DNA from: a bacterium
Lineage (GTDB): Bacteria; Aerophobota; Aerophobia; Aerophobales; AE-B3A
Reading direction: 5' to 3'
DNA length: 64,000 bases
Assembly (NCBI GenBank): GCA_046758525.1
Contig: JBHIAL010000001.1
Span: 667-64,666, forward strand
Below are positions 11,631 through 42,458 of this stretch, piece after piece; the stretch's first letter is position 1; each line of letters begins with the position of its first letter. The position numbers and the translations under genes are program-made. The notes beneath the pieces were generated by a model. It was not told where the DNA came from. It saw nothing but the letters and a program-made list of their open reading frames with translations, and did no database searches.

Positions 11631-12568
11631 CATTTCTTATCACAGGAATATCTGGCTTTGTTGGTCCCTATTTAGCGAGTCATCTATTAGAGAGGGGACA
11701 TATCGTGTATGGGTTGGCTCACACTAAAACAGACAAGTGTGCGAAAGGTGTGAAATATCTACATGGGGATTTACGTAATATAAATGATTTAGTATCTTTA
11801 CAATCATACAATTTTGCTGGTGTTTTTCATCTTGCAGCATTAACTCACCCACCAACATCATTCAAGGAACCCAGATTGTATTTTGAAACAAATGCACTTG
11901 GGACTGTGAATTTATGCGAAGTCCTTGGAGAAAATAGTATAATTATGCAGTGCAGTAGTCCAGAAGTCTATGGGGTGTGCCCACAAAGAGAAATATTTGA
12001 GTCATTCCCAATGAACCCTGTTTCTCCCTATGCTGTTTCAAAGGCAGCATCTGATTTATATATTCTTGAGCGGACAAAAAGTAAAAGATTAAAGGCATTC
12101 ATTACACGGGCTGGGTCGCATACTGGAGCAGGCAGGCCTTCTTGTTATTCTATTTCTTCAGATGCTGCCCAAATAATAAGAATTAAAAGAGGCTTGCAGA
12201 AGCCTGTACTCAGGGTAGGAAATATTAATTCCCAGAGGGCTGTGATGGATGTTCGAGATGTGGTTGCAGCTTATTATAAATTAATGATTAAATATATACT
12301 GGGGGGAATAAGGAATGGAGATATTTTTCATATAAGTGGGCATAATTTACAGACAATAGAGTATTATATTGACCTTATGATGAATTTGGCAAATGTTAAA
12401 GCGGAAAAGGTAGCTGATAAAAATCTCGTGCGAAGGATAGATATTCCTGTACAGATATTAAACAGTGATAAAACTCGCTCTATTATTTCGTGGAAGCCAA
12501 AAATTCCTATTGAGGAAACTCTTGGAGAGCTACTTGATTATTGGGAGAAGATTATAGATGGGAATTAA
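11627..12568 (+). CDS. GDP-mannose 4,6-dehydratase / GDP-4-keto-6-deoxymannose reductase family (Gmd/Rmd-like extended SDR)
   Basis: Rossmann motif TGISGFVG. Catalytic YAVSK (YxxxK). LRVGNINSQRAVMDVRDVV matches the Gmd-family LRxGNLxAxRDWGxAxDYV block. Translationally coupled to the upstream gene by an ATGA overlap. Confidence 0.65.
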   Translation: MTFLITGISGFVGPYLASHLLERGHIVYGLAHTKTDKCAKGVKYLHGDLRNINDLVSLQSYNFAGVFHLAALTHPPTSFKEPRLYFETNALGTVNLCEVLGENSIIMQCSSPEVYGVCPQREIFESFPMNPVSPYAVSKAASDLYILERTKSKRLKAFITRAGSHTGAGRPSCYSISSDAAQIIRIKRGLQKPVLRVGNINSQRAVMDVRDVVAAYYKLMIKYILGGIRNGDIFHISGHNLQTIEYYIDLMMNLANVKAEKVADKNLVRRIDIPVQILNSDKTRSIISWKPKIPIEETLGELLDYWEKIIDGN

Positions 12569-13610
12569 AGATATTGACTCACATAAGCTGAATTACCATC
12601 CTGAAAGAGTAGCCCAATGGAAGAGTACGGGTTTTTGTTATCCCCTTCATATGGAAGTTGGAATAACTAATGAGTGCAATCACAGGTGTAAACAATGCAC
12701 GCTGGATTGGATAAATCATGGGCAGGATTCTCTTGATGCCCAGATTCTTGTTGAGACATTAAAGGAAGCAAGCAGTCTTGGAGTTAAATCTGTTTACTTT
12801 GCGGGGGAGGGTGAGCCAACTCTTCACAGAGCTTTGGGTTTGTTTGCAAGAACAGCGCATGATTTGGGAATAAAAGTGGCGCTTTCAACCAATGGGTCTT
12901 GTTTATCTACCTTAAAGGATACATTACCCTACTTATCGTGGTTAAGGTTTAGTGTTGATGCCGCAACCGCAGAAACATTCTCAAAAATCCATCGAGTAGA
13001 ACTTTCTGAATTTGATAAGGTTATTTCCAATATAAAGCAATGCGTAGATGTGGTTAAAAATGAGGATTATAAAGTACAGATTGGTATTCAGTCCCTCCTA
13101 ATGCCAGAAAATATAAATGAGATTGAGCCACTTGCCAACATTGCCAAGAATATAGGGGCGCATAATTTCCAAGTGAAACCTGCTCATTGCCACCCTAAAA
13201 GCTCTTATCAGATAACACCCCGCCAGCATTTACAAGATGGGATGCAACAAAGGCTTGAGAAGTTAAACAGTAATACTTTTACAACAATAGTAAGGATTAG
13301 AAGCTTGGAAAGGTTAGGTCAACCCAGAACTTATAATGAATGTCATGCGTTTAACTTCTATTGTCTCATTGATGCTTGTGGAAATTTGTCCCCTTGTAAT
13401 GTTTTTTATGGAAAAGATAATTATATATTTGGTAATATTTATAAGGACAGTCTTCAAGAGATTTGGTCAAGCGACAAGAAGAGAATAATAATAAAGCAAA
13501 TAGCTGAGCTTAAACATTCACTGTGTAAAGATTACAGATGCAGACAGGATGTAATGAATAGGTATCTTGAAAGAGTGAAGAATCCAGAGATTAACGATGA
13601 GTTTATTTAG
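12558..13610 (+). CDS. radical SAM enzyme with C-terminal SPASM/twitch-like Cys cluster
   Basis: CNHRCKQC is a Cx3Cx2C motif. GEGEP is a SAM-binding-like motif. The C-terminal CHAFNFYCLIDACGNLSPC supplies auxiliary-cluster cysteines. Confidence 0.7.
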   Translation: MGIKDIDSHKLNYHPERVAQWKSTGFCYPLHMEVGITNECNHRCKQCTLDWINHGQDSLDAQILVETLKEASSLGVKSVYFAGEGEPTLHRALGLFARTAHDLGIKVALSTNGSCLSTLKDTLPYLSWLRFSVDAATAETFSKIHRVELSEFDKVISNIKQCVDVVKNEDYKVQIGIQSLLMPENINEIEPLANIAKNIGAHNFQVKPAHCHPKSSYQITPRQHLQDGMQQRLEKLNSNTFTTIVRIRSLERLGQPRTYNECHAFNFYCLIDACGNLSPCNVFYGKDNYIFGNIYKDSLQEIWSSDKKRIIIKQIAELKHSLCKDYRCRQDVMNRYLERVKNPEINDEFI

Positions 13611-13621
13611 GAGTAGAATGA

Positions 13622-14590
13622 ATGATTAAAAAGACGGTCTTGGTATGTGGAGCGGGGGGTTTTATAGGCAATCATCTTGTAAAGCGCCTGAAAAAAGACG
13701 GTTATTGGGTAAGGGGAGTGGATTTGAAATACCCAGAATATTCAAAAACTGAAGCGGATAATTTTGTTGTTGGTGATTTAACAGATATTACTTTTTGTCG
13801 AGGGATAATGGATAGACAATTTGATGAGGTATATAACCTCGCTGCTGATATGGGGGGAGCTGAGTATGTATTTACAGGCGATAACGATGCTAATATTATG
13901 TCCAATTCAGTAATGATTAATCTAAACATACTGAATACTTGTTATAAGAGAAACATAAAGCGCCTTTTTTATTCCTCTTCAGCGTGCTGCTATGCAGAAC
14001 ACAACCAGTTAGACCCACATAATCCAAAATGTTCTGAAGATTCTGCCTATCCTGCTAATCCTGACTCTGCCTATGGTTGGGAAAAACTGTTTAGTGAGCG
14101 TCTTTATAATGCCCATCATAGAAATTGTGGTATGGAAGTTAGGATTGGTCGCTATCATAATGTGTTTGGTCCCGAATGTACTTGGTTTGGAGGGAAGGAA
14201 AAAGCACCTGCTGCACTATGTAGGAAAGTGGCTGAAGTTGAATCTGGAGGAGGAATAGAGATATTTGGGGATGGGAAACAAACAAGGTCTTTTCTCTACA
14301 TTGATGAGTGCATTGAAGGTACTATCAGGCTTATGAAGTCGGATTATAATGAACCCATTAACATAGGCTCGGATGAAATGATAACAATAGACGAATTAGC
14401 CAAAAAGATAATGACTATTGCCAAGAAGGAATTAAAAATCAGGCATATAGATGGGCCTCAAGGGGTTAGGGGCAGAAACTCAGATAATACACTGATTAAA
14501 AAGGTCTTAGGCTGGGCTCCATCTGCTTCTTTGGATGAGGGGCTTAGAGTAACATATGACTGGATTTCAAAAAGGAGGGATATAACATGA
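13622..14590 (+). CDS. GDP-mannose 3,5-epimerase homologue (GME family)
   Basis: Block-by-block resemblance to plant GDP-mannose 3',5'-epimerase as I recall it, not an alignment I ran: GAGGFIGNHL; NLAADMGG; SSACCYAE; DSAYGWEKL; RIGRYHNVFGP; GGKEKAPAALCRK; GDGKQTRSF.YIDECIEG; NIGSDEMITI; GPQGVRGRNSDNTLIKKVLGWAP; EGLRVTYDWI. Confidence 0.75.
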   Translation: MIKKTVLVCGAGGFIGNHLVKRLKKDGYWVRGVDLKYPEYSKTEADNFVVGDLTDITFCRGIMDRQFDEVYNLAADMGGAEYVFTGDNDANIMSNSVMINLNILNTCYKRNIKRLFYSSSACCYAEHNQLDPHNPKCSEDSAYPANPDSAYGWEKLFSERLYNAHHRNCGMEVRIGRYHNVFGPECTWFGGKEKAPAALCRKVAEVESGGGIEIFGDGKQTRSFLYIDECIEGTIRLMKSDYNEPINIGSDEMITIDELAKKIMTIAKKELKIRHIDGPQGVRGRNSDNTLIKKVLGWAPSASLDEGLRVTYDWISKRRDIT

Positions 14591-16725
14591 CAGTCGAACA
14601 TACTATTATAATACCTCTGACCACTAACCTTTGTAACTTGAGAGAAACCATAAAGAGTGTAAATGAATACTCAGAAGACCACGAGATTCTGGTTATTGTA
14701 GATGATAGACAAAAGGTAGAATCAGAAATTGTAAAAACTATGGCATCTGTAGTTTGCAAAAAATCTACAATTGGGGAGGCTCTTAATGCTTGCATAGATT
14801 CAGCCAATGGAAAATACATTACAATCTTGAAGGATAATGCACTTGTTTCTCCTAATTGGCTAAATAAACTAAAAAGAACCTTTTTGCTCCCATCTTACAG
14901 ACCAGTTACAATAGCTGCGCCAATTCTGAGTCATACAGTATTTAGTGTCCAACAATGTGAATTCAGTCTGACATCTGGTAATTATATAAAAGCCTTGGAA
15001 GAGCGTAAGTTTAATTATGGATACACTCTTGCAAATCTGGTTTCGGATGTGTGTATTATGTTTGAGAGGACAAATGGGGTGCGCTTTAATGGGACGCTAA
15101 ATTCAGGTGAGATATTTGACGTGGTAGTAAGGAACACGCTCTCTGGAAATATATGTGCAATTAATAAGGGCGTTTTCATATTTGATAAGAGTCCAATAAC
15201 AAAACTTGATAATCTATCAAAGAGTATTATTGCTGTAGCCAAGATACATAACAGGTATCTCACAAGACCCCAAACAATACTGGGGGTAATAAGAACCAAA
15301 ATAACAAATGATTTTGACGCTGAAATATTCAAAATGGTATTGGATAAAACTAAGAGTCTTGTTGATAAAATACTTGTTCTCAATGAGGGACAGGAGTATC
15401 CTTTTGACCTGATAGGAGATATAAATAAACTGGATGTGTCTGAATCAATACATAACGAGAAAGCTTCCGAAGCAATAATCGACAGAATTGAAGAACTTAA
15501 TTGCGACTGGATTTTACACCTGAATGAAAAAGAAGTTTTAGAGGAGTCTATTACAAGGAAGGATTTGGACAGACTTATTTATAACCCTAACCCCCTTATT
15601 CATGGATATGTTTTTCAGGATTATCTATTTGAGGGGACGGACAATAACTACACAGCAAGTCAAGATTCCACCAAGACTGTAGTCCCCAATCTATTCAGAT
15701 ATATTCCAAATAGTAAGCATAGAAATTTTGCTATGCTCTTAAAGATGACTGAAGACTCTTTATGTGTATCAAGCATGAGATATAAACAGTATATAGAGCC
15801 AGCTAAAAATAAACCTGTCTTTACAACGAAGATGTGGAATGCAAATAATAGAATTGACATATGTACTATTATGAAAAATGAGGAGGCCAAATTATTCTGG
15901 TACATGCACAGACATTTTGGCTTTGCCAACAATGTTATACTTATTGACACAGGTTCTACGGACAGCTCCATAGAGTTGGCGAGATTGTTAGGAGCTATTG
16001 TTTATGAAGAAAGGGACGGCTCTAAAGATTTTGCACGAGCAAGGAATACCTATCTCAATAAATCATCTTCAGAATGGATTTTTCATGTTGATTTGGATGA
16101 ATATTGCAGTGATTTGACAGGCATAAGGAAATTGACTGAAGGTACTTGTGATAACTGGTTATTCAAGATTCAAAACAGGCGGAAGGATGGCTCCACTCCT
16201 ACAAGCGAAACCATCAGGCTGTTTCGTAATAAAGAAGGATTATCTTATAAGGGTATAATACATGAAATACTTGATACGCCGAAACCCCCTGCATATTCGC
16301 CCATAATTCTAATCAATGAAGGATTCTTGGAAGATGATGATGTCGTTGCAAGGAAGGTAAAAATGTATCTGGATATGTGCATGATGAGAATCAAACAAGA
16401 CCCAGAGGATGTTCAGGCATTATACTCAGTTGGGATTCATTTGGCAGATGATAATAGATATGAGCTTGCAATAGCAATGCTCAACAAGGCGGTAAGATTG
16501 ATGAGTGAATGGCACTTGCCAAAGAAGGAACTGGCAGTTACATATCTGCATTTTGGTAAACAATTATATAAAGAGCTTGTTGATATGTTGCCTGCCCACC
16601 ATCCTGACAGACTGGAATATGTAAAAGTATTTGAGTTTCTAAACAACGCATTCAAACCAAGAATAATAGATGTTGTCAGTATTACAAAAGATATATCTGA
16701 CGAGGATATAATGAAGATTTTATAA
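14587..16725 (+). CDS. multidomain glycosyltransferase: N-terminal GT-like domain, central GT2 domain, C-terminal TPR-like repeats
   Basis: 712 aa. ICTIMKNEE...LIDTGSTD...DLDEY is a GT2 signature. The C-terminus is helical and repeat-like (ALYSVGIHLADDNRYELAIAMLNKAV). ATGA overlap with the epimerase gene. Confidence 0.55.
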   Translation: MTVEHTIIIPLTTNLCNLRETIKSVNEYSEDHEILVIVDDRQKVESEIVKTMASVVCKKSTIGEALNACIDSANGKYITILKDNALVSPNWLNKLKRTFLLPSYRPVTIAAPILSHTVFSVQQCEFSLTSGNYIKALEERKFNYGYTLANLVSDVCIMFERTNGVRFNGTLNSGEIFDVVVRNTLSGNICAINKGVFIFDKSPITKLDNLSKSIIAVAKIHNRYLTRPQTILGVIRTKITNDFDAEIFKMVLDKTKSLVDKILVLNEGQEYPFDLIGDINKLDVSESIHNEKASEAIIDRIEELNCDWILHLNEKEVLEESITRKDLDRLIYNPNPLIHGYVFQDYLFEGTDNNYTASQDSTKTVVPNLFRYIPNSKHRNFAMLLKMTEDSLCVSSMRYKQYIEPAKNKPVFTTKMWNANNRIDICTIMKNEEAKLFWYMHRHFGFANNVILIDTGSTDSSIELARLLGAIVYEERDGSKDFARARNTYLNKSSSEWIFHVDLDEYCSDLTGIRKLTEGTCDNWLFKIQNRRKDGSTPTSETIRLFRNKEGLSYKGIIHEILDTPKPPAYSPIILINEGFLEDDDVVARKVKMYLDMCMMRIKQDPEDVQALYSVGIHLADDNRYELAIAMLNKAVRLMSEWHLPKKELAVTYLHFGKQLYKELVDMLPAHHPDRLEYVKVFEFLNNAFKPRIIDVVSITKDISDEDIMKIL

Positions 16726-17003
16726 ACAATCGGAGAAATTGCTTGACATTTTAATTATTTGTGTTTTTATTATGTGTAAGTGAGTATGCTAACGCAGTTT
16801 ACAATTGAAAAGATTAAAAGGGTTGTACAAGAGGAGGAGTCAAGAATCACTAACAACGATTTCTGTGGTTCTATAAGTATTAAACTGAATTTTCTTCATG
16901 GTTTGGTAAGGACGGTCGAAACATCCATAAACCAACATGAGCAACTCAAGAACTAAAATTTAAAATATATTAAAAATCTCATTAGCTTTACCAAAGCCTG
17001 AGA

Positions 17004-17046
17004 TGGGTAATTAATCTACCTGTCTTGGGCTTTTTTATTGGAATAA
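17004..17046 (+). terminator. possible rho-independent terminator (G·U-containing stem plus T tract)
   Basis: AGCCUGAGAUGGG pairs with CCUGUCUUGGGCU as RNA in a 13-bp stem with 4 wobble pairs, followed by UUUUUAUU. This is weak and lies immediately before the portal ATG. Confidence 0.25.
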
Positions 17047-17047
17047 A

Positions 17048-18358
17048 ATGCAAATAACACAAAAAATAAGAAACTTTCTTAGAACAAAAGCCAATAGAGC
17101 ATTGGGGCTTATGATTTATCCTTGGATGGACAATAGCGGGATAAAGATGGATTGGCGAACAAAGGATTATATAGATTTGTATGGTAAATCCGATTTTTCC
17201 AATGCTGTGGTTCATGGGACAGTGAAAGAGCTTGCATTGGCTATTGCCAATTGCGATTTGAAATTTTATCGAAAGGTAAGAAAGAAAAAATTAAAGAAAT
17301 TGACCCGTACTCACCCCCTTGTAGATTTATTCTGGAATGTTAATCCTGTTACAACCAGATTTGATTTTTGGGAATCTCTTGTTGTCTATTTGCAATTGGC
17401 AGGCGAAGCCCCTGTAGCATTAGAGCGACTGAATAAGTTAGACCAACCTAAAGAACTATGGACTTTAAGACCCGATTTTATTCGTGTAATTCCAGACGCT
17501 AAAAATTTTGTTAGGGGGTATCTGTATGAGACTGGTGTGGGACGGGTTGGCTACCTCCCCAACGAATTAATATTTTTTAAGCATTTTAGCCCAACAGAAA
17601 CATGGAGAGGGCAGTCCCCCTATGCTGCTGCAAGACAAGAACTTATATCTGAATATTATAGAAGTAAATATAATATCGAATTCTTCAAACAAGGCGCAAG
17701 TCCTTCTGGAGTATTCTCCACAGATAGGACATTAGACAATGATACGTTTAAGAGACTTCAGAAAGAGCTTGAGATGGCTTACTCAGGCGTTAATAAGGCG
17801 CACAGACCAATGTTACTTGAAAGCGGATTGCAATGGACTCGAATAGGAGTGAGCCCAAAGGATGGTGATTTTATACAACAACACGCCTTGAACAATGAAG
17901 CAATTGCAGGTGTTGTGAATGTGCCCCCTCAATTTGCCTTTGGGGGCAATTCATTCAGATACGGAAATGTTCAAACCACAAAGGAACAAGCCAAGATGTT
18001 TTGGGGGATTACGATAAAGCCCCTAATCAGAAAAATAGAGGAGTATTTAAATACTTTCCTTGTAAAGAGATATGGTAATGATTTGATTGCCAAGTTTGAT
18101 TTAAGTGAAATTGACGCTATCAACGATACAAATGTTGAAAAGAGTATTGTTGCAAGAAGAATGGTAGAAATAGGTATCTGGACTCCAAATGAAGCAAGAA
18201 AGATATTGTGGAATATGGAAGAAACAGAAGACGGAAATGGCGATACAAGATATGTACCAGGTAATTTAATTGATGCCAATTCGGAATCGCAGATACCTGA
18301 TGAACCTGATAATGGTAAACTTTTGGAGAGGCACGAAAATGAACGAATTTATATATAA
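17048..18358 (+). CDS. portal protein
   Basis: 436 aa. Called mainly by synteny (portal, protease, then MCP) and size. Confidence 0.55.
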   Translation: MQITQKIRNFLRTKANRALGLMIYPWMDNSGIKMDWRTKDYIDLYGKSDFSNAVVHGTVKELALAIANCDLKFYRKVRKKKLKKLTRTHPLVDLFWNVNPVTTRFDFWESLVVYLQLAGEAPVALERLNKLDQPKELWTLRPDFIRVIPDAKNFVRGYLYETGVGRVGYLPNELIFFKHFSPTETWRGQSPYAAARQELISEYYRSKYNIEFFKQGASPSGVFSTDRTLDNDTFKRLQKELEMAYSGVNKAHRPMLLESGLQWTRIGVSPKDGDFIQQHALNNEAIAGVVNVPPQFAFGGNSFRYGNVQTTKEQAKMFWGITIKPLIRKIEEYLNTFLVKRYGNDLIAKFDLSEIDAINDTNVEKSIVARRMVEIGIWTPNEARKILWNMEETEDGNGDTRYVPGNLIDANSESQIPDEPDNGKLLERHENERIYI

Positions 18359-19487
18359 AACAGTTGATTCTAAGATTAAAGATATAGATGAAAGAAACAG
18401 GACATTTTTAGCCATAGCCTCCACCGAAGATAAAGATAGGGATGGAGATATTATTCAACAAAGTGGCTGGGATTTGAGGAACTATGAAAAGAATCCTGTT
18501 GTACTTTGGGCGCACAGACACACAGATTTACCTATAGCTAAAGCAGAAAAGATAAAGGTTGAGGATAATAAGCTTGTCTTTAAACCGAAATTTGCAACGT
18601 ATGAGGAATACCCATTTGCAGATACAGTTTTCAAGCTATACAAAGGGGGCTTTATTAATTCATTTTCGGTTGGCTTTCAGCCAAAGGAATCTGAGCCTTT
18701 AGATGAGGATAACCTTTTTAGTGGAAGAAGAATAATTAAACAGGAATTGCTCGAAATTTCTGGTTTGCCCTTACCTTCCAATCCAAGCGCAAGGATTAGG
18801 GAAGCGCTTTCAAAGGGAATTATAAGTGAGGATGACCACAAGATTTATAATGATACAATGAATTTAATAATTGAAGAATGTATGGAAGATTTTGAGGGTA
18901 AGGGAACTGGGAATGGGAATATAACAGATGACTCTTGGGACGGCAGTAAATCAAGATTTTCAGTTCAACAGCTTTTAGCTTCTGTACCCCCAGCGATTGC
19001 AAGGGCAGCGAGGGCACGAGCAAGGCGGGAGGATAGAGAGATTGCGGACATCCCCAAAGATTGGTTAAAACTTCCTCATCACGAACCTAATGGGGCACTT
19101 AATGCAAATGGCGTGAGGGCTGCTAAAGGTAGATTAAATCAAGCAGATTTACCTGAAGGTGTTAGTAGAAGTGCGGTTATGGCTCATCTCGATATGCACA
19201 GTGGACAAGTTGAAAGATGGAGAGAAAGACGTAGTGTTGAGGATGAGGAAACCAAGCACACTCCCATTGAAATTATTTCATTTAATACATTTGAAGCTGC
19301 CCTGAAAGCTGTGAAGGCAGACGTAGACCTATACAAGAACAAGAATGAATTCAACAGTTCCGATAAAGAAAGACTAAATTGGATGGCTAATGAGCTTAAG
19401 AAGACATCCAATACATTATTCTCTTATGCGAATGAAGAAAAGCTAAGAGATTTAATCAAGCGTGCAGAGGCATGTTTGAAAGATTAG
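18339..19487 (+). CDS. prohead protease (HK97 / S78 family) with C-terminal coiled-coil (scaffold-like) extension
   Basis: NPVVLWAHRHTDLPIAKAE matches the conserved pvLwqHd..piG block of HK97-type prohead proteases. The start is taken at MNEF (18339); the track start 18270 overlaps the portal. Confidence 0.65.
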   Translation: MNEFIYKTVDSKIKDIDERNRTFLAIASTEDKDRDGDIIQQSGWDLRNYEKNPVVLWAHRHTDLPIAKAEKIKVEDNKLVFKPKFATYEEYPFADTVFKLYKGGFINSFSVGFQPKESEPLDEDNLFSGRRIIKQELLEISGLPLPSNPSARIREALSKGIISEDDHKIYNDTMNLIIEECMEDFEGKGTGNGNITDDSWDGSKSRFSVQQLLASVPPAIARAARARARREDREIADIPKDWLKLPHHEPNGALNANGVRAAKGRLNQADLPEGVSRSAVMAHLDMHSGQVERWRERRSVEDEETKHTPIEIISFNTFEAALKAVKADVDLYKNKNEFNSSDKERLNWMANELKKTSNTLFSYANEEKLRDLIKRAEACLKD

Positions 19488-19513
19488 TGCACATTTTTTA
19501 AGGAGTTTAGTAA

Positions 19514-20779
19514 ATGACTGAACCAAAAGAGCCACAGGAAAAAGACTTAGCTACACAACTCGAAGAAAAGGTTTCAGAGTTGGAGGCCAAAAAGAAAGAA
19601 GAAGTTGAAAGGAAAATTAAGGAGAAGGAGGATGCTGTAAAAATAGCTGAAGGCATGAAGGAATTCAAGGGCTTAAATGATAAGCTAACCAAAGAACTTG
19701 AGGCATTGAAGGAGCAGCAAGGTAATATAAAGGAAAGTGTTGAAAGGGATAGGGAAGAAAGAAAGCTTCGTTTCGACACTACTAAAGAGGTCAATGAGAG
19801 TGCCCCAAATAGTAACAAAGGGAGCGAGTTTAGTTTTGCTCGATTTTATAACGCTATAGCACATAAGAACATGAATCTTGCTCCTTACGAGTTTAAGGCT
19901 TTGGGGGAAAGCACAGGTTCGGGGGGTGGTTTTATAGTACCAGAGGAATACCTTGGCGATTTAAGGGATAGAATTACAGCGCAGTCAGTTGTTAGAGGAA
20001 TGGGACCTACTGTCTATCCTATGGTATCTGATACTCTGTTAGTACCAAAGATAACAGGCGGGGCTACAGCCGTTTGGGTGGGGGAGAATGCACAAATTAC
20101 TGAAAGCCAAAACACATTTGGACAACTTCAGTTAATAGCAAAGTTGTTGGCAGCCCTTGTCAAAGTAAGTAATCAATTGATTTCTGATTCTAATCCTGCT
20201 GTTGAGACTGCTGTTAGAAAGGATACGGTAAAGGTTCTTGCGCTTGCCGAGGATATTGCATTCTTGGGAGGCTCTGGTTCGGCTAACCAACCAACAGGTA
20301 TCATAAATACTACTGGTGTAGCAGAGGTTACTCTTGGGGCAAATGGGGCAACGCCTACATTTGATAATATTTATGACACACTCTATCAGGTGGAGTTGGC
20401 TAATGGCGTAGCAAGCGGTTGGGTTATGCACCCAAGAACAAAAAACACATTGACAAAGATTAAGGATTCCAATGGTCAATACATCTACAATGTAAGTCCA
20501 AGTATCAAGGAGCCAGATACACTTGTAGGTTTGCCTGTAAAACTAACCACCCAAGTTCCAATCAATCTTACTGTGGGCAGTTCTTCAGACTGTTCTTATG
20601 TAATCTGCGCCCAATGGGATGAGGCTGTGATTGGGGAAAGAGCAGGCATTGAGTTTGCTGCTGATACATCTGGGACTGCTTTTGAGTTTTACCAGACTTG
20701 GATTAGGGCAATTGAAAGAATTGATTTTGGGTTAAGGACACCAGAAGTGTTCTGTAAAATGACTGGCGTAAGACCTTAA
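19514..20779 (+). CDS. major capsid protein, HK97 fold, with N-terminal delta/scaffold domain
   Basis: The N-terminal ~110 aa are a charged coiled coil (EEKVSELEAKKKEEVERKIKEKEDAVK). The rest has HK97-MCP size and composition. It follows the protease and is followed by a strong terminator. Confidence 0.7.
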   Translation: MTEPKEPQEKDLATQLEEKVSELEAKKKEEVERKIKEKEDAVKIAEGMKEFKGLNDKLTKELEALKEQQGNIKESVERDREERKLRFDTTKEVNESAPNSNKGSEFSFARFYNAIAHKNMNLAPYEFKALGESTGSGGGFIVPEEYLGDLRDRITAQSVVRGMGPTVYPMVSDTLLVPKITGGATAVWVGENAQITESQNTFGQLQLIAKLLAALVKVSNQLISDSNPAVETAVRKDTVKVLALAEDIAFLGGSGSANQPTGIINTTGVAEVTLGANGATPTFDNIYDTLYQVELANGVASGWVMHPRTKNTLTKIKDSNGQYIYNVSPSIKEPDTLVGLPVKLTTQVPINLTVGSSSDCSYVICAQWDEAVIGERAGIEFAADTSGTAFEFYQTWIRAIERIDFGLRTPEVFCKMTGVRP

Positions 20780-20802
20780 GTAGTGAGATTTATATAAATT
20801 TT

Positions 20803-20840
20803 GAAGCCCTGCTCTTGTCAGGGTGGGGCTTCTCTTTATA
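20803..20840 (+). terminator. rho-independent terminator after major capsid gene
   Basis: Sequence gaagCCCTGctcttgtCAGGGtggggcttc. The inner stem is CCCTG/CAGGG and the outer stem is GAAG/CTTC, followed by TCTCTTTAT. Confidence 0.5.
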
Positions 20841-20852
20841 GGAGAGTTAAAC

Positions 20853-21257
20853 ATGGCAAGAAACGTTGGTGAAGTTATTAAAAGTCTAACAGCCCTGAGA
20901 CCACAATCTGATTCTGGAGGTTCTGCTGTAAATGGAGCGGATGTTGATAGATTGGGTTATCAGAATGCTACCTTTCTAATTCAAACAGGAGCTATCAGTG
21001 GTTCTCCAGGTGCAAACACAGTTACAGTAAATGTTCAACATGCTACTGCTGCAGGGGGCTCCTATGCAAACGTGTCTGGGGCAACTGGTACAATCACTGC
21101 TGCTAATACCGATTTGGAGATTAATGTCGCACTTCAAGCGTTGAATCAGTATATACGTGTAACTGAGACCACTGCATTTACAGGTGGTTCATCTCCCACA
21201 GTTTTGATTGGTTCCGCATGTGTACTTGGTAATTTCTCTGGCACATTACCTGTCTAA
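20853..21257 (+). CDS. hypothetical head-associated protein (possible decoration protein)
   Basis: 134 aa starting at the ATG at 20853 with SD GGAGAG; the track's GTG start at 20823 lies inside the terminator. Gly/Ala/Thr-rich. Confidence 0.4.
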   Translation: MARNVGEVIKSLTALRPQSDSGGSAVNGADVDRLGYQNATFLIQTGAISGSPGANTVTVNVQHATAAGGSYANVSGATGTITAANTDLEINVALQALNQYIRVTETTAFTGGSSPTVLIGSACVLGNFSGTLPV

Positions 21258-21271
21258 AAATAGGGACATTT

Positions 21272-21348
21272 GGGCAGAAGTGGAGAACTGAGAAAGATAT
21301 AACGAAATCAATTTATTGAGGATATTTCGATAATGTACACTTCTGCCC
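21272..21348 (+). repeat. long-range perfect 11-bp inverted repeat (GGGCAGAAGTG ... CACTTCTGCCC) enclosing a nested CGAAAT/ATTTCG hairpin
   Basis: Read directly. It is followed by CCTTTTCTTGGG. It may be a terminator or a structured RNA. Confidence 0.3.
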
Positions 21349-21397
21349 CTTTTCTTGGGATTGGATGAACAAAATGCTTAAACATTATGAGAATAAG

Positions 21398-21457
21398 ATG
21401 ATGGAGTCAGTCGATAAGCCTAAGAGGAAGAAAAAGAAGAAAAAGATTAAAAAATAA
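21398..21457 (+). CDS. 19-aa poly-lysine micro-ORF (MMESVDKPKRKKKKKKIKK)
   Basis: Read by hand. It carries an AAG/AAA run. Confidence 0.2.
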   Translation: MMESVDKPKRKKKKKKIKK

Positions 21458-21598
21458 CTTTTTCTGGGGGAGTTTCCCATGTGTGATATAGATGATGCTT
21501 TTCGTAGAGCAATAAACAAAAGGGTTGGCTATTTAGAATAGTGTGAGGAACGCTTTGGGGAAGACAAGGAAGCCAAGGGAGATTTTAAGAGTTCCTAT

Positions 21599-22237
21599 AT
21601 GGAGTTGTTTCATTTTTATAACGCACAAGCATTTCTTATAAGGAGAGGATACAGCAGACTTAACGAAGATTGGATAAAAGATGATGTAGAAGGAACCTTT
21701 AAAGAAATTGACGAAAAATACCCTTACATGCTTGAAGATTTAAGCAGAGTCTTAATACAATGCAATGAGCTTATTGCTATACATGGAGATTGGGCTAAAT
21801 ATATAAAACCTCCCCAGGCACCATTACCCTCACAGGATATATCTTCTTTATTTTACGATATAAATGAGTCCATAAGAGAAGAAGAAAAGAGAACAATTGC
21901 TAATATAAATGATTTATTAATGAGAAAAGATGGAAAGAGGGGTTTTGGAGAATATGGAACTTACTGGAGATATGATGAAGATACTCTTGGTAGCTTCATT
22001 ATGGCATTATTATACTGCTATGATATAAAGAATTTTTTTATAAGGCAAAAATATAATAGGATAAATAAGTCGTGTCAGAAAGGTCGTCTGGATGCAATAT
22101 TCAAAGATATTGGCGAGAACTATCCATTTGTGTTTGATAAGATGCGTGAGATAGAGAAAGAATATCCCCTACGACTTAAAGAAGTAGAATATATGTACGA
22201 TGATTTATTTAAGGAAGAACAATTAGTACATATTTAA
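21599..22237 (+). CDS. hypothetical protein, moron-like insertion
   Basis: 212 aa and visibly AT-richer than the flanking structural genes. It is set between a ~340-nt intergenic region and the connector gene. No recognisable motif. Confidence 0.4.
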   Translation: MELFHFYNAQAFLIRRGYSRLNEDWIKDDVEGTFKEIDEKYPYMLEDLSRVLIQCNELIAIHGDWAKYIKPPQAPLPSQDISSLFYDINESIREEEKRTIANINDLLMRKDGKRGFGEYGTYWRYDEDTLGSFIMALLYCYDIKNFFIRQKYNRINKSCQKGRLDAIFKDIGENYPFVFDKMREIEKEYPLRLKEVEYMYDDLFKEEQLVHI

Positions 22238-22240
22238 ACT

Positions 22241-22792
22241 ATGGCTATAACTATAACAAGAGCACAAGTAAAGGCTAAGGACACATTCCCCACATCTGAT
22301 GACAGCTTTGTTGATACACTTATAAGTGCAGTTACTACATTTGTAGAGAATTATCTTAAACGCACAGTAGAAGCTGCTGCTTATGATGAATACTATGATG
22401 GAGATGGCAGTCTTGAGATTCATACTAAACAATTTCCTATAAATAGTGTATCCTCACTTACACATGAAGACGAAAACGGCAATACAGTTTATACATGGAC
22501 GAGTGTTGACTACGCCTATGAAAGTCAAGGACTTATAAAATTAAGAAAGGGAAAATTCCCAAAAGGAATCCAAAATATAAGAATTCAATATAACGCTGGT
22601 TATACAACATTGCCCAAAGACCTTGAGGATGCAGTTATAGACCATATTTTATGGAAGAAAGCAAACAGGCAAGGGAAGGATTTGGGATTAAGAACTAAAT
22701 CCTTGGGTGATGGAGGTTATCAGATATACCAAATGGGAATACCAGATAAAATAAAAATAGTTTATGATTTGTACCGAAGATTTGGCACTTAA
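22241..22792 (+). CDS. head-tail connector / adaptor protein (gp6-like)
   Basis: N-terminus ITITRAQVKAKDTFPTSDDSFVDTLISAVTTFVENYL resembles gp6-like connectors (leader region ...dd..l..li.aA...). Confidence 0.55.
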   Translation: MAITITRAQVKAKDTFPTSDDSFVDTLISAVTTFVENYLKRTVEAAAYDEYYDGDGSLEIHTKQFPINSVSSLTHEDENGNTVYTWTSVDYAYESQGLIKLRKGKFPKGIQNIRIQYNAGYTTLPKDLEDAVIDHILWKKANRQGKDLGLRTKSLGDGGYQIYQMGIPDKIKIVYDLYRRFGT

Positions 22793-22807
22793 CAGGAGGA
22801 TTTCAAC

Positions 22808-23812
22808 ATGCCACTACAAGCAACAGGTTCAGAAGCCCTAATTGTGTTTGATGAAGAAGTAACATACAATACTATACCAACGGCAGCAGCAGCAAATCCA
22901 AGATTATTTCCCTTTACATCCGAGGATTTGAGGAGGTCAAGGGGCAGGATTGAGTCAGCAGCCATTACGGCATACAGGGATAGAAGGATGCCCCGACAGG
23001 AAAATATCGATGTCAGGGGCACAATTAATTTTGAGGCAGATGCTACGTGGATGGGAACCATATTCAAACATGCTTTAGGTTCTGTATCATCTACAACAAC
23101 CGCTCCTAATTACACTCACACAATTACAGTTGGCGCTCTGCCTACAGGTTTGATGCTTGAGAAAAGATTTATAAATGTTGGTTCAGCGACTGGAACTCAA
23201 TATTTCAACTACAGAGGATGCAAGATTAATCAGCTCTCCATGAGTTTTAGTGCAAGCGGATTTATAACAGGCTCGGTTTCTGTTATAGGCGCATCGGAAA
23301 ATCAATCCACAGCCTCCTACACAACAGCGACTGCAACAGACTTGGGTAATAATCCATTCGATGGTTTCGAGGCTACAATATTTGAGGGGGGAACTGGAGG
23401 TACTACATTAGGTTACGCTACTGATATAGAGTTTACACTTGATAATGCCCTTGATGACACCACATTCGCCATTGGTGGAGCGGGGACAAGGCGAAATCTC
23501 CCAGAAGGCTTCTCAACTATAACAGGTACAATGACTGTGTTATTTGAGGATATTTCACTTTATACAAAGGCTGTAAATTTTGATACAAGCCTCATCAAGA
23601 TACAACTCACTCGTGGTACAGGAGACGGCTCGGCAGGCAATGAACACATGGAAATTCTTATACCAGAATTGAAATATGATTCGAGCGCTCCTGTTGTAGC
23701 GGATGATAGGGGAATCAAGCTTGAGTTGCCTTTCTCTGCATTTGCATCAACAGCAGGCGGTTCTACAACCAGTATGCAGATTACACTCAAGAATACTCAA
23801 GCGACAATCTGA
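22808..23812 (+). CDS. structural protein, possibly major tail tube protein
   Basis: 334 aa, Thr/Gly/Ala-rich and beta-rich in composition. Called from position only. Confidence 0.35.
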   Translation: MPLQATGSEALIVFDEEVTYNTIPTAAAANPRLFPFTSEDLRRSRGRIESAAITAYRDRRMPRQENIDVRGTINFEADATWMGTIFKHALGSVSSTTTAPNYTHTITVGALPTGLMLEKRFINVGSATGTQYFNYRGCKINQLSMSFSASGFITGSVSVIGASENQSTASYTTATATDLGNNPFDGFEATIFEGGTGGTTLGYATDIEFTLDNALDDTTFAIGGAGTRRNLPEGFSTITGTMTVLFEDISLYTKAVNFDTSLIKIQLTRGTGDGSAGNEHMEILIPELKYDSSAPVVADDRGIKLELPFSAFASTAGGSTTSMQITLKNTQATI

Positions 23813-23861
23813 GAAAGTCAAAATGTTTTAAAAATCTACCTCTATTTGGGGAATTTATAAA

Positions 23862-24347
23862 ATGAAAATTATAGAAGATGCAGCAATAAAGATTAGGACT
23901 GTGCTTCAGACTAATCTTCCAGCCAAATTAGACACAATAGACACTGAAAGAGGCGATGGAATCGTTCTGGATGACATCGCCTTTTTTTCCATTACAAGTT
24001 ATCAATTGAACGAATACTTCCCCCGCCCTGCAATGTTTATCTTAGGAGAAAACACTCCATTTCTTGAAATCTCCACAGTTGGAGGTAAAAGAAAGAGAAT
24101 GACTTATATAATGGACTTGACTGTCGTAGTAGAAGATAATGATGAAGAAAGGTTGCAAAAGAAATTGTGGCGATATGCTGATGGGGTTGAGAGAGTTCTG
24201 GAGGCAGACAGACGATTAGGAGGGACTGTTCACTCTATAATAATAAAGGATTTGTTGATAACCAGTAGGGGTTTTACCACTTCTTCGGCACCAACAAGAG
24301 CAATAAGCCTCCTCGCTGAGATTCAACAGGATTATACTATTGATTAG
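23862..24347 (+). CDS. neck / head-tail joining protein (hypothetical)
   Basis: 161 aa, placed between the connector and the chaperones. Confidence 0.35.
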   Translation: MKIIEDAAIKIRTVLQTNLPAKLDTIDTERGDGIVLDDIAFFSITSYQLNEYFPRPAMFILGENTPFLEISTVGGKRKRMTYIMDLTVVVEDNDEERLQKKLWRYADGVERVLEADRRLGGTVHSIIIKDLLITSRGFTTSSAPTRAISLLAEIQQDYTID

Positions 24348-25392: not shown

Positions 25393-25658
25393 TCGGTGGC
25401 AAGCGGATAACCCAGATTGCGAAGACTCCATCAGGAAGATTGGTTAATGAGGATATACCAATCCCTTTCTACATAGAAGATATAGTTTTTGAGGCTTTTC
25501 TTTGCTACAAAATGGGTAAATTATTCAGAGATGGCGGGCTAAAAGCACAAAGATACAAGGAGTTACAAGTGCTATATTTGGTAATCCAATACATAGACAG
25601 AAAGTACATCAATGATTGGTGTGAAGTTCTTTTTGGTTCAAAGGACAGTAAAAAATAA
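25368..25658 (+). CDS. -1 frame extension giving the G-T-like chaperone fusion (about 263 aa total with 24868..25368)
   Basis: See the slippery site above. The track ORF 25440..25658 is the ATG/TTG-anchored part of this frame. Confidence 0.5.
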   Translation: MEHAIEKLIGGKRITQIAKTPSGRLVNEDIPIPFYIEDIVFEAFLCYKMGKLFRDGGLKAQRYKELQVLYLVIQYIDRKYINDWCEVLFGSKDSKK

Positions 25659-28600
25659 TGGCTAACTTAGGAATTACAGTAACTGCTGACGCTAAAAATG
25701 CTCTTGGCACACTTGTCAAATTGCAAGCGCAACTTGAGAATATAGGCAAGATTAAGGGCACTGGTTTTTCAAAAAGCTTCATAAATCTTCAAAAAGAGCA
25801 GGAAAAGACTCTCCAAAAACAAATAGACCTTCAAGGCAAGAAGGCCGATGCAGTAAGTAGGTTTGCAGTAGCAGAACAAAAAACAATTCAGCAAGCAATG
25901 AGGGCTAATCAACAGGCTGCTAAAGCCAAAGATAAGGCAGTAAAGGATGAGATACGCACAGAACAGCAAAAGAGTAAACTTGCACTAAATATAAGAATGA
26001 CGGAAGCCAAGACTGTTAAGGATTTGGAAAAGCTGAAAGCAGATGCTGTCAAACTTCAAGGATTTGAACGATTCAAGGCGGAAAAAAATATAAGTCAGAA
26101 GATTAAGAAGGTTCAGGAGCAAGAGGCTGCGTGGAGAAAAGCAAAGCTGCTTGCTGCTGGTAACACAATAATAAGAACATTTACAGGTGTAGCAGCAGCA
26201 TTTGAGAAGATAGGATTGCCTCAAGGTCTTTCCCTTTCTGCTCGTGCTTTATCAGATGTCGTGAGGGCTATGCAAACATTCAAGAAAGAGGGGTCTTTAA
26301 GTGGCTTACAAGGATTAACACGTGCTTGGGGCAGGGTATTTGAAGGTTTAGCAAAAGGCATAACCACACTTTGGCTCAATGTGCTTGGTACAATGCTCAA
26401 GGTAGCTACTAATATAATGGGCAAGATACTAAACGTATTCAAACGTACATTTCAGGGCATGTCAATTGCCCTTGCTGCCTTTCTTGCAAAGGCAACCGTT
26501 GACTTTATAAGGTTCAGTCATGCTATATCTGGAGCAGTCATACTTATACCTGAAGCTACTGAAAAAACATTCTCAAAAGCATTTAAAGGGGTTGCACAAA
26601 TAGTAAGGGACATCCCTTCTGAGTTTAGAGACATAGCAGCAGGTTTAACAGAGATTGTATCTACAGGTATAGAAAATATAAATGAGGCTCTTATAATTAC
26701 AAGAGAGGCCGCCAGAGGCGCAGTATCTGGTATGACAAATGTTGCTACTGCAACATCGGGTTTATTAACAGTCATAAGTGCCTACAATATGTCAGCTAAG
26801 GACTCCTCAAAAATAAATGATTTATTGTTCAGGACAGTCGACAAATCAAGGGCAAGTTTTACACAACTTACTCAGGAGATGGGATTCTTCATAGGTGTTG
26901 CAAGAAATGCCAATCTTGCCCTTGAGGAAGTATTTGCAACATTCTCACTCATAACAAGGGTACTGAGACCAGAACAAGCAGGCATTGCTACTGCAAGATT
27001 GATTGAGGCTGTTACTACTCCATCTGAGGAGATACTCCAAAGAATGCAAGCTTTGGATATATCCCCATTTCAATTTGGGCAGTTTGGGGAGCGCATCTTT
27101 TTGGGCATGGAGAATTTCCTGACAAGGTTAGCCTCAAAAAATTTTCCCACTCATATAATACGACAGCTATTTCCAGATGCAAGGCAATTCAGGGCTGCTA
27201 CATCAATCATAGGTCAAGGAGTTGCCAATATTGAAAAAATGTTTGATTCTTTTGGTAATTTTATAGGTGCACAAAGCAAACCCTTTGAAACAATGTCCAA
27301 TACGATACAGAACATACTGCTGCAATTGTGGAATAATATAAGATTATTAGGAGCAACACTCATAAGACCTCTTGATAAGCCTCTGACATTATTTGTAACC
27401 AAAATTAAAGATTTTGCCATAGGGATTGGGGATACACTCCGTAAGCACATTGAGAGGGGCGGATTTGGAAGGGTTGTATCAAGAATTCAAGGAATGGTAA
27501 ATGATATTGATTTTTCTACTGGCACAACCAAAGCAGAGAGCTTCTTTCTTGGTTTAGATAATCTTATGAACAAAGCTCTTGACCTAATTGATAAGGTTAG
27601 ACAAAATTTTGGTACTATAAAAGATACCGTCAAAGATGTTTTTGTTACCATAGTTACAACCCACTTACCAAAAATTATAGAAACATTCAAAATAGTTGGA
27701 GGGCTTATATTAGATTTGGCTAAAATATCATTGACTGTTCTAAAACCAGTCATACTTATAGCTGAAAAGGCTGTAAATCTCAGCAGCTTTATCTTTGGAG
27801 ACTCCTCAAAGTTGAGTAGGGCAAAATCCGACAGGAAAAAACTTCAAGAGGAATTAGATAGTATTAGAACTAAGAAAAGAGAGCCCATAAAATTAGAATC
27901 AGGTTCTATAAGTGAAGAAACAAAAAAAGAAATCAAAGCCTTAGATGATAGAGAGAAGATAATTATATCTAAGATTGAGGGTTTAAATAAAAAGATTGAA
28001 CTACTAACAGAATTGACAGCTAACACAGGCTTAGGCATTAATCCAGCAATAGATGCAGTTATAAAGGCTTTTATTGAATTAGAAGCAGTGGGGGGGAAGG
28101 CATTAGACAAGTTCTTAAAATTACTCCAAGATTTTGCTGCGGGTACTAAAGAAGCTGGGGAAAAAGCAGGAACTGCCCTTACAGAAGGCATGAATAGAAT
28201 GTTAGATGTAAGTACAACAGTAGAATTTCTTAAAAGAGAGGAAGAAGAATTTAATGACCATGTACAAAGATTAAGATTACAACTACTTGAGGCTGGAGGT
28301 GTACTATCCCCTCAAACCTTTGATACTATGATTGCTAAAATGAGAAGTCATCTTATAGATAGGGGATTTAAACCAATAACAAAAGAGGCAGTACAGCTTG
28401 CTAATGATGCTTTTGAGGAGTTACAAAAACTTTTAGAGTTCCCTGAGAAGTTCAACTTCTCTCGTGAACAAACCGAAAGGGTATTAGAAGATGCAAGAAA
28501 AAGGGCGTTAGACGTAACCCCATTTAAAACATTAAGGGGTTTAACTGGTACGAAAAGATTAGAGGCATTAGACCCAACAGGAAGGATAGAGGAATTAAAT

Positions 28601-29566
28601 CAACTCGAACACAAAAGCGGGATTATTACTCAAGAAAAGGCAGACGCTGCTAAAGAATTAGGTCTAAATTATGGTATCTATGCTGATTTTCTCGAAGAGG
28701 GTATTAGAAGAGAAATGGATACTCTAAGACTACAATTCAGGCGCAATGATGCAGCACAGAAGCAGATAGACTTGTTGGAAAAGTTCAGAATATTACAAGC
28801 AAAAATACAGTCCGCTCAAATAAGGGCAGATGTTGGAGAGACTGTTGGCGAGGTTGTGATGGCTAAATTGAAAGCGAGGCAGTTTGAAGAAAGACCTGTC
28901 CAAATCATTGCTGACCGAATAGTAAATATATTTGATGATATGGGAAGTAGGATTGAAACTACCCTTACAGATGTCTTTAATACAGGCGAGCTCAACTTCA
29001 GAAATTTTGCAGAATCCATACAAAAAATAATGAACAGGGCTATATCTGGTATAATTGCAGATTTAATACGTTTAAAATTAAGAACAGCTATCCTGGGAGA
29101 GGCTGCGGGCGATGCTGGTGGAGGTCTGAATATTTTAGCAGCCATTGGAAGCCTCTTTGGCGCTGCTGGAGGTGCAGCGCCACCAAGCACTGGTACTAAC
29201 CCTTCTCCTGCAGGGCCTGGAGGAGGTGGGTCGTTGGCAAGACATAGTGGGGGGATGATTACAAAAGATACTCCCCGCTTTCACTCTGGGGGATTCAACA
29301 GATTATTAGCAGAGGATGAGCGAATGGCTGTTCTACAAACTGGAGAGGGAGTTCTATCCAGAGAGGGCATCAAAAACTTAGGGAAACTAAACAAAGGACA
29401 ACTATCAAAAGATTCATCTCAGGGTAATCTAACTATTAACATGCCAGTAACTATAGAAGCAATTGACCCTGTATCTGGAGCAGAGTTAATACAACCAATG
29501 ATAACAAAGAATGACCCGCTGCTTCGAGCTATGTATAGAAGATGGCAAATAGACCAAAGGAGATAA
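25658..29566 (+). CDS. tail tape measure protein
   Basis: 1302 aa, strongly alpha-helical and coiled-coil in composition, with a Gly-rich C-terminal segment (GGGLNILAAIGSLFGAAGGAAPP). Confidence 0.85.
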   Translation: MANLGITVTADAKNALGTLVKLQAQLENIGKIKGTGFSKSFINLQKEQEKTLQKQIDLQGKKADAVSRFAVAEQKTIQQAMRANQQAAKAKDKAVKDEIRTEQQKSKLALNIRMTEAKTVKDLEKLKADAVKLQGFERFKAEKNISQKIKKVQEQEAAWRKAKLLAAGNTIIRTFTGVAAAFEKIGLPQGLSLSARALSDVVRAMQTFKKEGSLSGLQGLTRAWGRVFEGLAKGITTLWLNVLGTMLKVATNIMGKILNVFKRTFQGMSIALAAFLAKATVDFIRFSHAISGAVILIPEATEKTFSKAFKGVAQIVRDIPSEFRDIAAGLTEIVSTGIENINEALIITREAARGAVSGMTNVATATSGLLTVISAYNMSAKDSSKINDLLFRTVDKSRASFTQLTQEMGFFIGVARNANLALEEVFATFSLITRVLRPEQAGIATARLIEAVTTPSEEILQRMQALDISPFQFGQFGERIFLGMENFLTRLASKNFPTHIIRQLFPDARQFRAATSIIGQGVANIEKMFDSFGNFIGAQSKPFETMSNTIQNILLQLWNNIRLLGATLIRPLDKPLTLFVTKIKDFAIGIGDTLRKHIERGGFGRVVSRIQGMVNDIDFSTGTTKAESFFLGLDNLMNKALDLIDKVRQNFGTIKDTVKDVFVTIVTTHLPKIIETFKIVGGLILDLAKISLTVLKPVILIAEKAVNLSSFIFGDSSKLSRAKSDRKKLQEELDSIRTKKREPIKLESGSISEETKKEIKALDDREKIIISKIEGLNKKIELLTELTANTGLGINPAIDAVIKAFIELEAVGGKALDKFLKLLQDFAAGTKEAGEKAGTALTEGMNRMLDVSTTVEFLKREEEEFNDHVQRLRLQLLEAGGVLSPQTFDTMIAKMRSHLIDRGFKPITKEAVQLANDAFEELQKLLEFPEKFNFSREQTERVLEDARKRALDVTPFKTLRGLTGTKRLEALDPTGRIEELNQLEHKSGIITQEKADAAKELGLNYGIYADFLEEGIRREMDTLRLQFRRNDAAQKQIDLLEKFRILQAKIQSAQIRADVGETVGEVVMAKLKARQFEERPVQIIADRIVNIFDDMGSRIETTLTDVFNTGELNFRNFAESIQKIMNRAISGIIADLIRLKLRTAILGEAAGDAGGGLNILAAIGSLFGAAGGAAPPSTGTNPSPAGPGGGGSLARHSGGMITKDTPRFHSGGFNRLLAEDERMAVLQTGEGVLSREGIKNLGKLNKGQLSKDSSQGNLTINMPVTIEAIDPVSGAELIQPMITKNDPLLRAMYRRWQIDQRR

Positions 29567-42129: not shown

Positions 42130-42178
42130 TTGATATTAAATAAACCCACAAAAAACATAGAAAATCCCCTTGCATACC

Positions 42179-42207: not shown

Positions 42208-42216
42208 TATGTTGTA

Positions 42217-42423: not shown

Positions 42424-42458
42424 ATGTAAACCCAAAAAGATTTTAAGAGGCTAAAAGA

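Follow-up and report, generated by a model that had tools for sequence, protein, structure and literature searches.

We analyzed a 64,000-nt stretch of DNA (hereafter the window; positions 667 to 64,666 of the forward strand of contig JBHIAL010000001.1, assembly GCA_046758525.1) that represents most of the genome of an uncultured tailed phage. Within its late gene run, the last conserved gene of the head module (encoding p144) and the gene for the head-tail adaptor are separated by a 341-nt gap (21258-21598) and an open reading frame (ORF) of 212 codons (21599..22237, + strand; ATG 21599, TAA 22235-22237). This ORF is annotated by NCBI as "MAG: hypothetical protein ACE5HR_00140 [bacterium]", where MAG denotes a metagenome-assembled genome. 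The explanation that we favor, and regard as fairly probable, is that it is a late accessory gene, translationally coupled to the adaptor gene, whose N-terminus was secondarily truncated by a nonsense mutation.

The 212-aa ORF is a real gene. Its 212 sense codons are unbroken at 32% GC, where ~7.6% of random codons would be stops by a base-composition estimate, the GC content of its first codon position (GC1) exceeds that of the second and third positions (GC2 and GC3), and the encoded protein contains a significant internal repeat. The duplication has a period of ~134 aa and a Smith-Waterman score of 99, compared with 31 ± 5.6 for shuffled sequences (0/1000 shuffles reached the score). The two repeat units are predicted to be helical, arranged in tandem, each ~120 aa in length, and separated by the proline-rich linker KPPQAPLPSQ. 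The 212-aa protein is 25.6 kDa with an isoelectric point of 5.1, is predicted at low confidence to be all-helical, and has no transmembrane segment (highest 19-residue hydropathy 1.3) and no signal peptide. AlphaFold2 models reached a pLDDT (predicted local distance difference test) of 36 from the single sequence and 42 from an alignment of the two repeats, both too poor for a fold search. A reading of the two-fold repeat as LAGLIDADG or HEPN was dropped, there being no Pfam match and the respective motifs being absent.

The initial annotation spoke of an AT-rich moron and described the 212-aa ORF as visibly lower in GC than its neighbors. That description holds for the ORF, which has a GC content of 0.319 against a mean of 0.376 (standard deviation 0.032) over 64 ORFs, ranks third lowest among them, and falls within the lowest 2.4% of all 639-nt windows, or the lowest 0.7% within the + strand arm. 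The 341-nt gap is not AT-rich, with a GC content of 0.364 that is near the window mean of 0.376. The GC deficit of the ORF is found mainly at codon position 2 (GC2 0.268), and the protein is rich in Ile, Lys, Glu, Asp, Tyr, Phe, and Asn. At the third codon position the ORF (GC3 0.268) is similar to the flanking genes (0.255 and 0.250), the compositional difference lies at codon positions 1 and 2, and its synonymous codon use gave the best fit to phage preferences among 49 genes tested. Because the GC2 deficit reflects amino acid composition, and GC3 and codon use are phage-like, base composition is weak evidence of a foreign origin.

The encoded protein is an orphan and was a singleton in both large protein searches. 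A word-seeded search of 5.8 billion protein clusters returned only the ORF itself. An exhaustive phmmer search of 1.84 billion representatives returned the ORF and two weak, multi-stretch matches (P0002 and P0003), both of which are repeat-rich sequences and were judged spurious. When the two internal repeats were used as a profile, the ORF alone was recovered. The initial annotation had recognized no motif in the 212-aa protein, and profile searches agreed: Pfam, PHROG, NCBIfam, and PADLOC gave nothing significant for either the 212-aa protein or a 252-aa form obtained by reading through an upstream in-frame TAG codon, and Pfam gave nothing significant for the two repeats alone. The best PHROG match, to a family of unknown function, had a nonsignificant E-value of 0.053, no PADLOC family was matched at E ≤ 1 by either form, and sequence and profile searches of the PDB found nothing below E = 0.02. 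With tblastn there was no match to the ORF in 50,697 phage records, and no paralog or translocated copy in the window or in any of the loci collected for comparison.

To place the ORF in its genomic context, related loci were collected in two rounds of searching, the first with the adaptor protein as the query and the second with five aligned adaptors. One locus, L018, is an independent Logan assembly of run SRR29324601 and is identical over the region, including the stop codons; it is the only one among 59 loci with a tblastn match to the ORF. The most informative relatives are L022, L019, and L043. In L022, a 97.9-kb contig from Hainich groundwater (portal 65%, capsid 69%, p144 73%, and adaptor 48% identity), 222 nt separate the p144 homolog from the adaptor gene, with a micro-ORF ending 26 nt from the adaptor gene. 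In L019, from Logan run SRR29324610 (portal 64%, capsid 49%, p144 46%, and adaptor 48% identity), a 131-aa gene is followed by 91 nt containing a hairpin and then by the adaptor gene. In L043, a contig within a Planctomycetota MAG (capsid 57% and adaptor 40% identity), the capsid gene lies 163 nt from the adaptor gene and a micro-ORF abuts the latter with a gap of 0 nt. The ORF is absent from all three, each of which passes from a head gene or micro-ORF straight to the adaptor gene, in agreement with the suggestion of the initial annotation that the ORF interrupts the capsid-to-connector run. A fourth locus, L021, is a 657-nt contig encoding an adaptor with 60% identity; the 49 bases ahead of that gene, which in one frame read ...KDKK-stop, do not resemble the 3′ end of the ORF, which is weak evidence for absence of the ORF.

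Relative to L022 and L043, the insertion proper extends from the micro-ORF stop to the adaptor start (21458..22240, + strand), and its 783 nt comprise exactly one ribosome-binding site and one 252-codon frame. The ORF is additional DNA separating two genes that lie side by side in related phages, the feature on which the moron concept centers (PMC4378225 and PMC6316719). Since no relative matches it, gain in the lineage of the window is the parsimonious interpretation, and since relatives lack it, the protein is likely to be dispensable for virion assembly in this phage group. The GC content of the ORF differs from that of its flanks, and no structural homolog was found at this position in the relatives, so that neither of the findings named by the initial annotation as refuting its proposal was obtained.

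Comparison with L022 and L043 allowed the 341-nt gap to be divided into a hairpin, a micro-ORF, and the 5′ part of the inserted gene. The initial annotation regarded the gap as a structured intergenic region belonging to the moron. Its length is as described, but its structure is modest (folding z = −2.1; 3/100 shuffles fold as well), it is largely not intergenic, and its hairpin and micro-ORF are ancestral, both being conserved in L022 and also in L043. The terminator-like hairpin (21272..21356, + strand) has a perfect 11-bp stem, formed by 21272-21282 and 21338-21348 (GGGCAGAAGTG / CACTTCTGCCC), a 55-nt loop with a small inner hairpin, and then the sequence CTTTTCTT. Its L022 homolog at 4790-4870 (GGGCAGGGGTGT...ACACCCCTACCC, followed by CTTTCTTT) carries two compensatory pairs, A-U being replaced by G-C on both sides. 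Strong hairpins are found at the same place in L043 (z = −5.9, followed by UGUUUU) and L019 (z = −4.4). This hairpin is best interpreted as an ancestral terminator or attenuator-like element that closes the head genes and lies outside the insertion. An Rfam search of the whole window at the gathering threshold detected only a tRNA, and a search of 21150-22300 at E ≤ 10 gave only chance snoRNA-like matches, far below threshold.

The second ancestral element is a lysine-rich micro-ORF (21374..21457, + strand) encoding 27 aa (MLKHYENKMMESVDKPKRKKKKKKIKK), or 30 aa if translation begins at ATG 21365; read from either start it is M(NKM)LKHYENKMMESVDKPKRKKKKKKIKK. Homologs occupy the same position in L022 (4882-4974, MIVAYENKAITEFNSASKKSKKKQKRKKKK, behind a GAGGAGG ribosome-binding site) and in L043 (4881-4949, MQKVYKNKMVRPGQTVKKSKGK, abutting the adaptor ATG), and in L038 (2048-2092) a sequence reading ...MVKGYKNKKLHTEG ends 3 nt before the adaptor gene of that locus. 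The pattern shared by several related phages is a start of M-x3-Y-[E/K]-N-K and a tail rich in Lys and Arg, over a total of 14 to 30 aa. Different codons lie behind the shared start and tail in the different phages, and this indicates conservation of a tiny protein. The gene tables of L018 and L019 list no gene in this slot, and the micro-ORF has no PHROG or Pfam match. We consider it to be a conserved microprotein gene that was missed by gene callers, ancestral and outside the insertion, and its product could be a tiny virion or regulatory protein. Frameshifting on its A-rich tail was discarded as a possibility, as both alternative frames encounter stop codons at once. The sharing of a AAAAGATTAAA word had pointed to a paralog in the 16726-17047 gap, but this was also discarded, the ORFs in that gap being unrelated. 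In more distant relatives, the slot preceding the adaptor gene is occupied by zinc-ribbon proteins of 44 to 48 aa (one of them KKKK-tailed), Lys/Arg-rich proteins of 31 to 75 aa, and other small ORFs, for example, L045 3150-3296, L046 4790-4924, L027 694-789, and L036 175-402. This suggests that the pre-adaptor slot is a variable position for small basic proteins.

At its 3′ end the inserted gene is closely linked to the adaptor gene. The TAA codon of the ORF ends 3 nt before the adaptor ATG at 22241, a start that is confirmed by N-terminal conservation with homologs (MAITIT...). The region upstream of the adaptor start has a predicted energy of +0.7 kcal/mol against the anti-Shine-Dalgarno sequence, i.e., no ribosome-binding site, whereas an AGGAG-type motif precedes most of the other structural genes. 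The 3-nt gap and the lack of a ribosome-binding site for the adaptor gene are the reasons for proposing translational coupling. In L043, the adaptor gene would be coupled likewise to its micro-ORF, across the 0-nt gap. No hairpin or T-run that could act as a terminator was found between the TAA and the adaptor ATG. No sigma-70-like promoter was detected on the + strand of 21258-21598, although the host may use promoters of another type, and a k-mer search across intergenic regions found no motif that was recurrent or shared with the gap. The initial annotation had proposed expression independent of the late genes, which these results do not support; co-transcription with the late genes and translational coupling would be more likely than independent expression.

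At its 5′ end the inserted gene probably once extended further upstream. A GGGGGAG ribosome-binding site (21466..21472, + strand) is located 6-7 nt before ATG 21479 and has a predicted energy of −8.4 kcal/mol against the anti-Shine-Dalgarno sequence, which at least equals in strength that of 77% of the phage genes. ATG 21479 opens a 20-codon ORF (MCDIDDAFRRAINKRVGYLE; 21479..21541, + strand) that is in frame with the 212-aa ORF and ends at a TAG codon (21539-21541), after which 19 sense codons lead to ATG 21599, making a total of 40 codons in the 212-aa frame. There are three stop codons in the gap in the frame of the ORF, compared with seven and 13 in the other two frames. The annotated start, ATG 21599, has a GGGAG motif only at a distance of 16 nt, a poor spacing. 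Alignments with repeat 2, obtained with tblastn and with Smith-Waterman, extend 5′ of ATG 21599 and across the TAG. When the 40 upstream codons were aligned with the stretch that precedes repeat 2, using the repeat core as the anchor, the score was 12, compared with −7.4 ± 7.8 for shuffles, of which 83/5000 reached 12; the other two frames scored −20 and −8. The optimally spaced ribosome-binding site, the common frame with a single TAG, the upstream repeat homology, and the match of the insert to one gene plus a ribosome-binding site all point to 21479 as the original start. The gene most likely began at ATG 21479 and later gained a nonsense codon at position 21, and the start of the annotated 212-aa form is probably secondary to that mutation. 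TAG is an ordinary stop in this phage, ending 8/63 genes; no excess of TAG-split frames was found, and on these two grounds TAG recoding was ruled out. No suppressor tRNA is encoded in the 64-kb window, where the sole tRNA is Pro(TGG).

Taken together, these observations would be explained if the lineage of the window gained one gene of ~252 codons (ATG 21479 to TAA 22237), with a good ribosome-binding site, between the lysine-rich micro-ORF and the head-tail adaptor gene. The original product would have been soluble and mildly acidic, with the proline-rich linker joining two helical repeats of ~120 aa in tandem. With a TAG at codon 21, the sole long product would now be the 212-aa form from ATG 21599, without the first ~40 residues of repeat 1. 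The inserted gene would have no transcription unit of its own and would lie downstream of the conserved, probably leaky, terminator-like hairpin, so that late transcripts passing the hairpin would carry the micro-ORF, the inserted gene, the adaptor gene, and the tail genes. Ribosomes ending at TAA 22235-22237 would most likely restart at the adaptor ATG 22241, and such coupling would select for a frame that remains open through to 22237, whatever the protein does. The inserted gene may then be either a gene for an accessory late protein or a gene in early decay.

Several points weigh against this explanation. The coupling was read from spacing alone, and the promoter scans were uninformative, as the host may use promoters of another type. 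The 40 upstream codons show weak homology with repeat 2 (p ~0.017 when anchored, and nonsignificant in free local alignment). Loss of the gene in several relatives, instead of gain, would be a less parsimonious history. Because the gene is represented by a single sequence, comparison with other copies offers no check on selection, on the true start, or on fixation of the TAG, and the agreeing assemblies (the MAG and L018) come from one sample, so that a shared error or a minor-allele consensus is possible.

Among the alternatives, the one that survives best, although we consider it clearly less probable than a coupled accessory gene, is that the TAG inactivated the gene and that the 212-aa ORF is a functionless remnant in early decay, kept open only because ribosomes must reach the adaptor start, or because the mutation is recent. 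The in-frame TAG only 20 codons past the sole well-placed ribosome-binding site, the badly spaced motif before ATG 21599, the part of repeat 1 that the 212-aa form would lack, and the use of TAG as a normal stop with no suppressor tRNA within the window all fit a pseudogene. However, there is only one lesion, at a GC content where stops would by our own estimate be frequent among random codons, so that any decay must be very recent; useless DNA is usually deleted rapidly by phages; and a product beginning at residue 41 could still be functional.

We assign a low probability to the proposal of the initial annotation that the ORF is an autonomous moron of the classical kind, with a promoter of its own within the 340-nt region, late-independent expression, e.g., from a prophage, and a role in exclusion or anti-defense. 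A role in host interaction, exclusion, or anti-defense would be speculative for this ORF. It would account for the insertion between neighboring genes and the low GC content, the upstream terminator-like hairpin could insulate the gene from transcription of the head genes, and orphan accessory genes in structural modules sometimes do have exclusion or anti-defense roles (PMC4378225). Yet the hairpin and most of the upstream region are ancestral and are present in relatives that lack the ORF, neither a sigma-70-like promoter nor a shared intergenic motif was found, and the absence of a downstream terminator, the 3-nt gap, and the adaptor gene without a ribosome-binding site point the other way. 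Unlike many exclusion proteins, the product has no transmembrane segment or signal peptide, and it has no PADLOC match. The incidental Pfam matches in the window (a replicative helicase, DNA polymerase A, and a RecA-like protein) do not settle the lifestyle of the phage. Least probable is readthrough of TAG 21539, programmed or by a suppressor tRNA encoded outside the window, to give a 252-aa two-domain protein and perhaps also a 20-aa peptide: the shared frame, the strong ribosome-binding site at 21479, the 19 sense codons between TAG and ATG 21599, and the repeat homology spanning the TAG would permit it, but no other gene has such an in-frame TAG interruption, TAG is the normal terminator of eight genes, Pro(TGG) is the sole tRNA in 64 kb, and no known readthrough signal was identified.

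If the coupled accessory gene is functional, it would add to the orphan accessory genes of phage structural modules, among which exclusion and anti-defense proteins have been found. As a more speculative and rather doubtful extension, it might represent, as its sole sequenced member, a novel family of late phage accessory proteins with two tandem ~120-aa helical domains, which could work inside the infected cell or be packaged into the head, e.g., to counter host defense, and the micro-ORF might separately encode an unrecognized tiny virion or regulatory protein of this phage group. The gene is a weak candidate for follow-up, because of its single sequence, lack of a fold, and premature stop. 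The corrections to the annotation are more useful: what was called an intergenic region holds a conserved terminator-like hairpin and a conserved microprotein gene that had been missed. The arrangement also illustrates one way in which an acquired gene can become fixed in place, namely by assuming the translational coupling to an essential downstream gene.

The late gene run in which the ORF is embedded is of the standard HK97 type, according to the gene list and to Pfam and PHROG profile searches, and the phage, long-tailed and of the HK97 type, is uncultured. It has no close relative among cultured phages: the top capsid identity in GenBank phage records is ~35%, and a blastn search of phage records with 19500-24000 gave zero matches. 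The MAG contig is 76,917 bp in length, of which ~13 kb falls outside the window. On the + strand, the run includes the portal (17048-18358), prohead protease (18270-19487), and major capsid protein (19514-20779) genes. The longest protease ORF begins at TTG 18270 and shares 89 nt with the portal gene, and the Logan gene call starts later, giving 382 aa, so that the start of the protease is uncertain. Directly 3′ of the major capsid gene is a strong, GC-rich hairpin of 13 bp followed by TCTTTAT (20803-20832), which is probably an attenuator that sets the ratio of capsid to accessory protein. The p144 gene (20853..21257, + strand), which forms the left flank of the region, encodes 134 aa from ATG 20853 or 144 aa from GTG 20823 and belongs to PHROG 5707, a family of unknown function; its homologs in L022 and L019 are at the same position. 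Because the hairpin overlaps GTG 20823, ATG 20853, with an AGGAG ribosome-binding site 7 nt 5′ of it, is favored as the true start. The right flank is the gene for the head-tail adaptor or head completion protein (22241-22792, + strand; PF24163, PHROG 442), followed on the same strand by the tail tube gene (22808-23812) and further tail genes, among them that of the tape measure protein (25658-29566).

Immediately upstream of the portal gene, in the slot where a terminase would be expected, is a set of sugar-modification genes (~11600-16725; L018 14-5127) encoding two NAD-dependent epimerases/dehydratases, a radical SAM/SPASM protein, and a 712-aa family-2 glycosyltransferase; L019 likewise has a 785-aa glycosyltransferase before the portal gene. 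After the last large tail gene, a region of 1,076 nt (42130-43205) contains no + strand ORF of at least 70 aa and only a 120-aa ORF on the minus strand (42588-42950). The coding strand switches near 46.7-47.1 kb. The minus-strand arm encodes a DnaB-like helicase (61487-63379), a DNA polymerase A with a UDG domain (58140-60359), and a RecA-like protein (55344-56369), and the single tRNA-Pro(TGG) gene (49113-49190, minus strand) lies between minus-strand genes.

Whether the inserted gene is a moron depends on the definition applied. In the strict sense, a moron is a single coding region located between genes that are adjacent in relatives, with its own promoter and terminator and a different base composition (PMC4378225). 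In the broad sense, it is a gene insertion unique to one or a few genomes (PMC6316719). The position between neighboring genes and the different base composition agree with the strict definition, and the want of a terminator of its own, with the TAA 3 nt from the adaptor ATG, does not. As a singleton that is absent from all syntenic relatives and appears dispensable for the core module, the gene is a moron in the broad sense and, as a phage accessory gene, of an ordinary kind; to this extent the initial annotation stands, without the independent expression that it attached to the term.

Three known systems are relevant. The lambdoid morons of HK97 and HK022 (Juhala et al. 2000 and Hendrix et al. 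2000, via PMC4378225) are, like the ORF, single coding regions between adjacent genes, with a base composition lower than that of their surroundings. In contrast to them, the ORF has no detected promoter or terminator, ends 3 nt short of the late gene that follows, to which it is probably coupled, and is phage-like in GC3 and synonymous codon use; there is no indication of prophage expression. The head completion and adaptor proteins (PF24163 HCP and PF05135 gp6-like) are encoded in the same late run, and the ORF lies immediately 5′ of a true adaptor gene. The ORF matches neither of these families, nor any other known structural family in Pfam or PHROGs, whereas the gene at 22241-22792 is matched, and absence of the ORF from relatives argues that it does not encode a core connector component. 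The closest precedent is ORF 14 of the siphovirus SPP1 of Bacillus, a dispensable orphan that follows capsid gene 13 and precedes adaptor gene 15, and which its authors regard as a moron in the broad sense (PMC6316719). SPP1 ORF 14 is described as short and shares no sequence similarity with the ORF described here (tblastn against phage records), which has 212-252 codons, an internal duplication, and a premature stop, but the two occupy the same slot, between the capsid module and the head-completion module.

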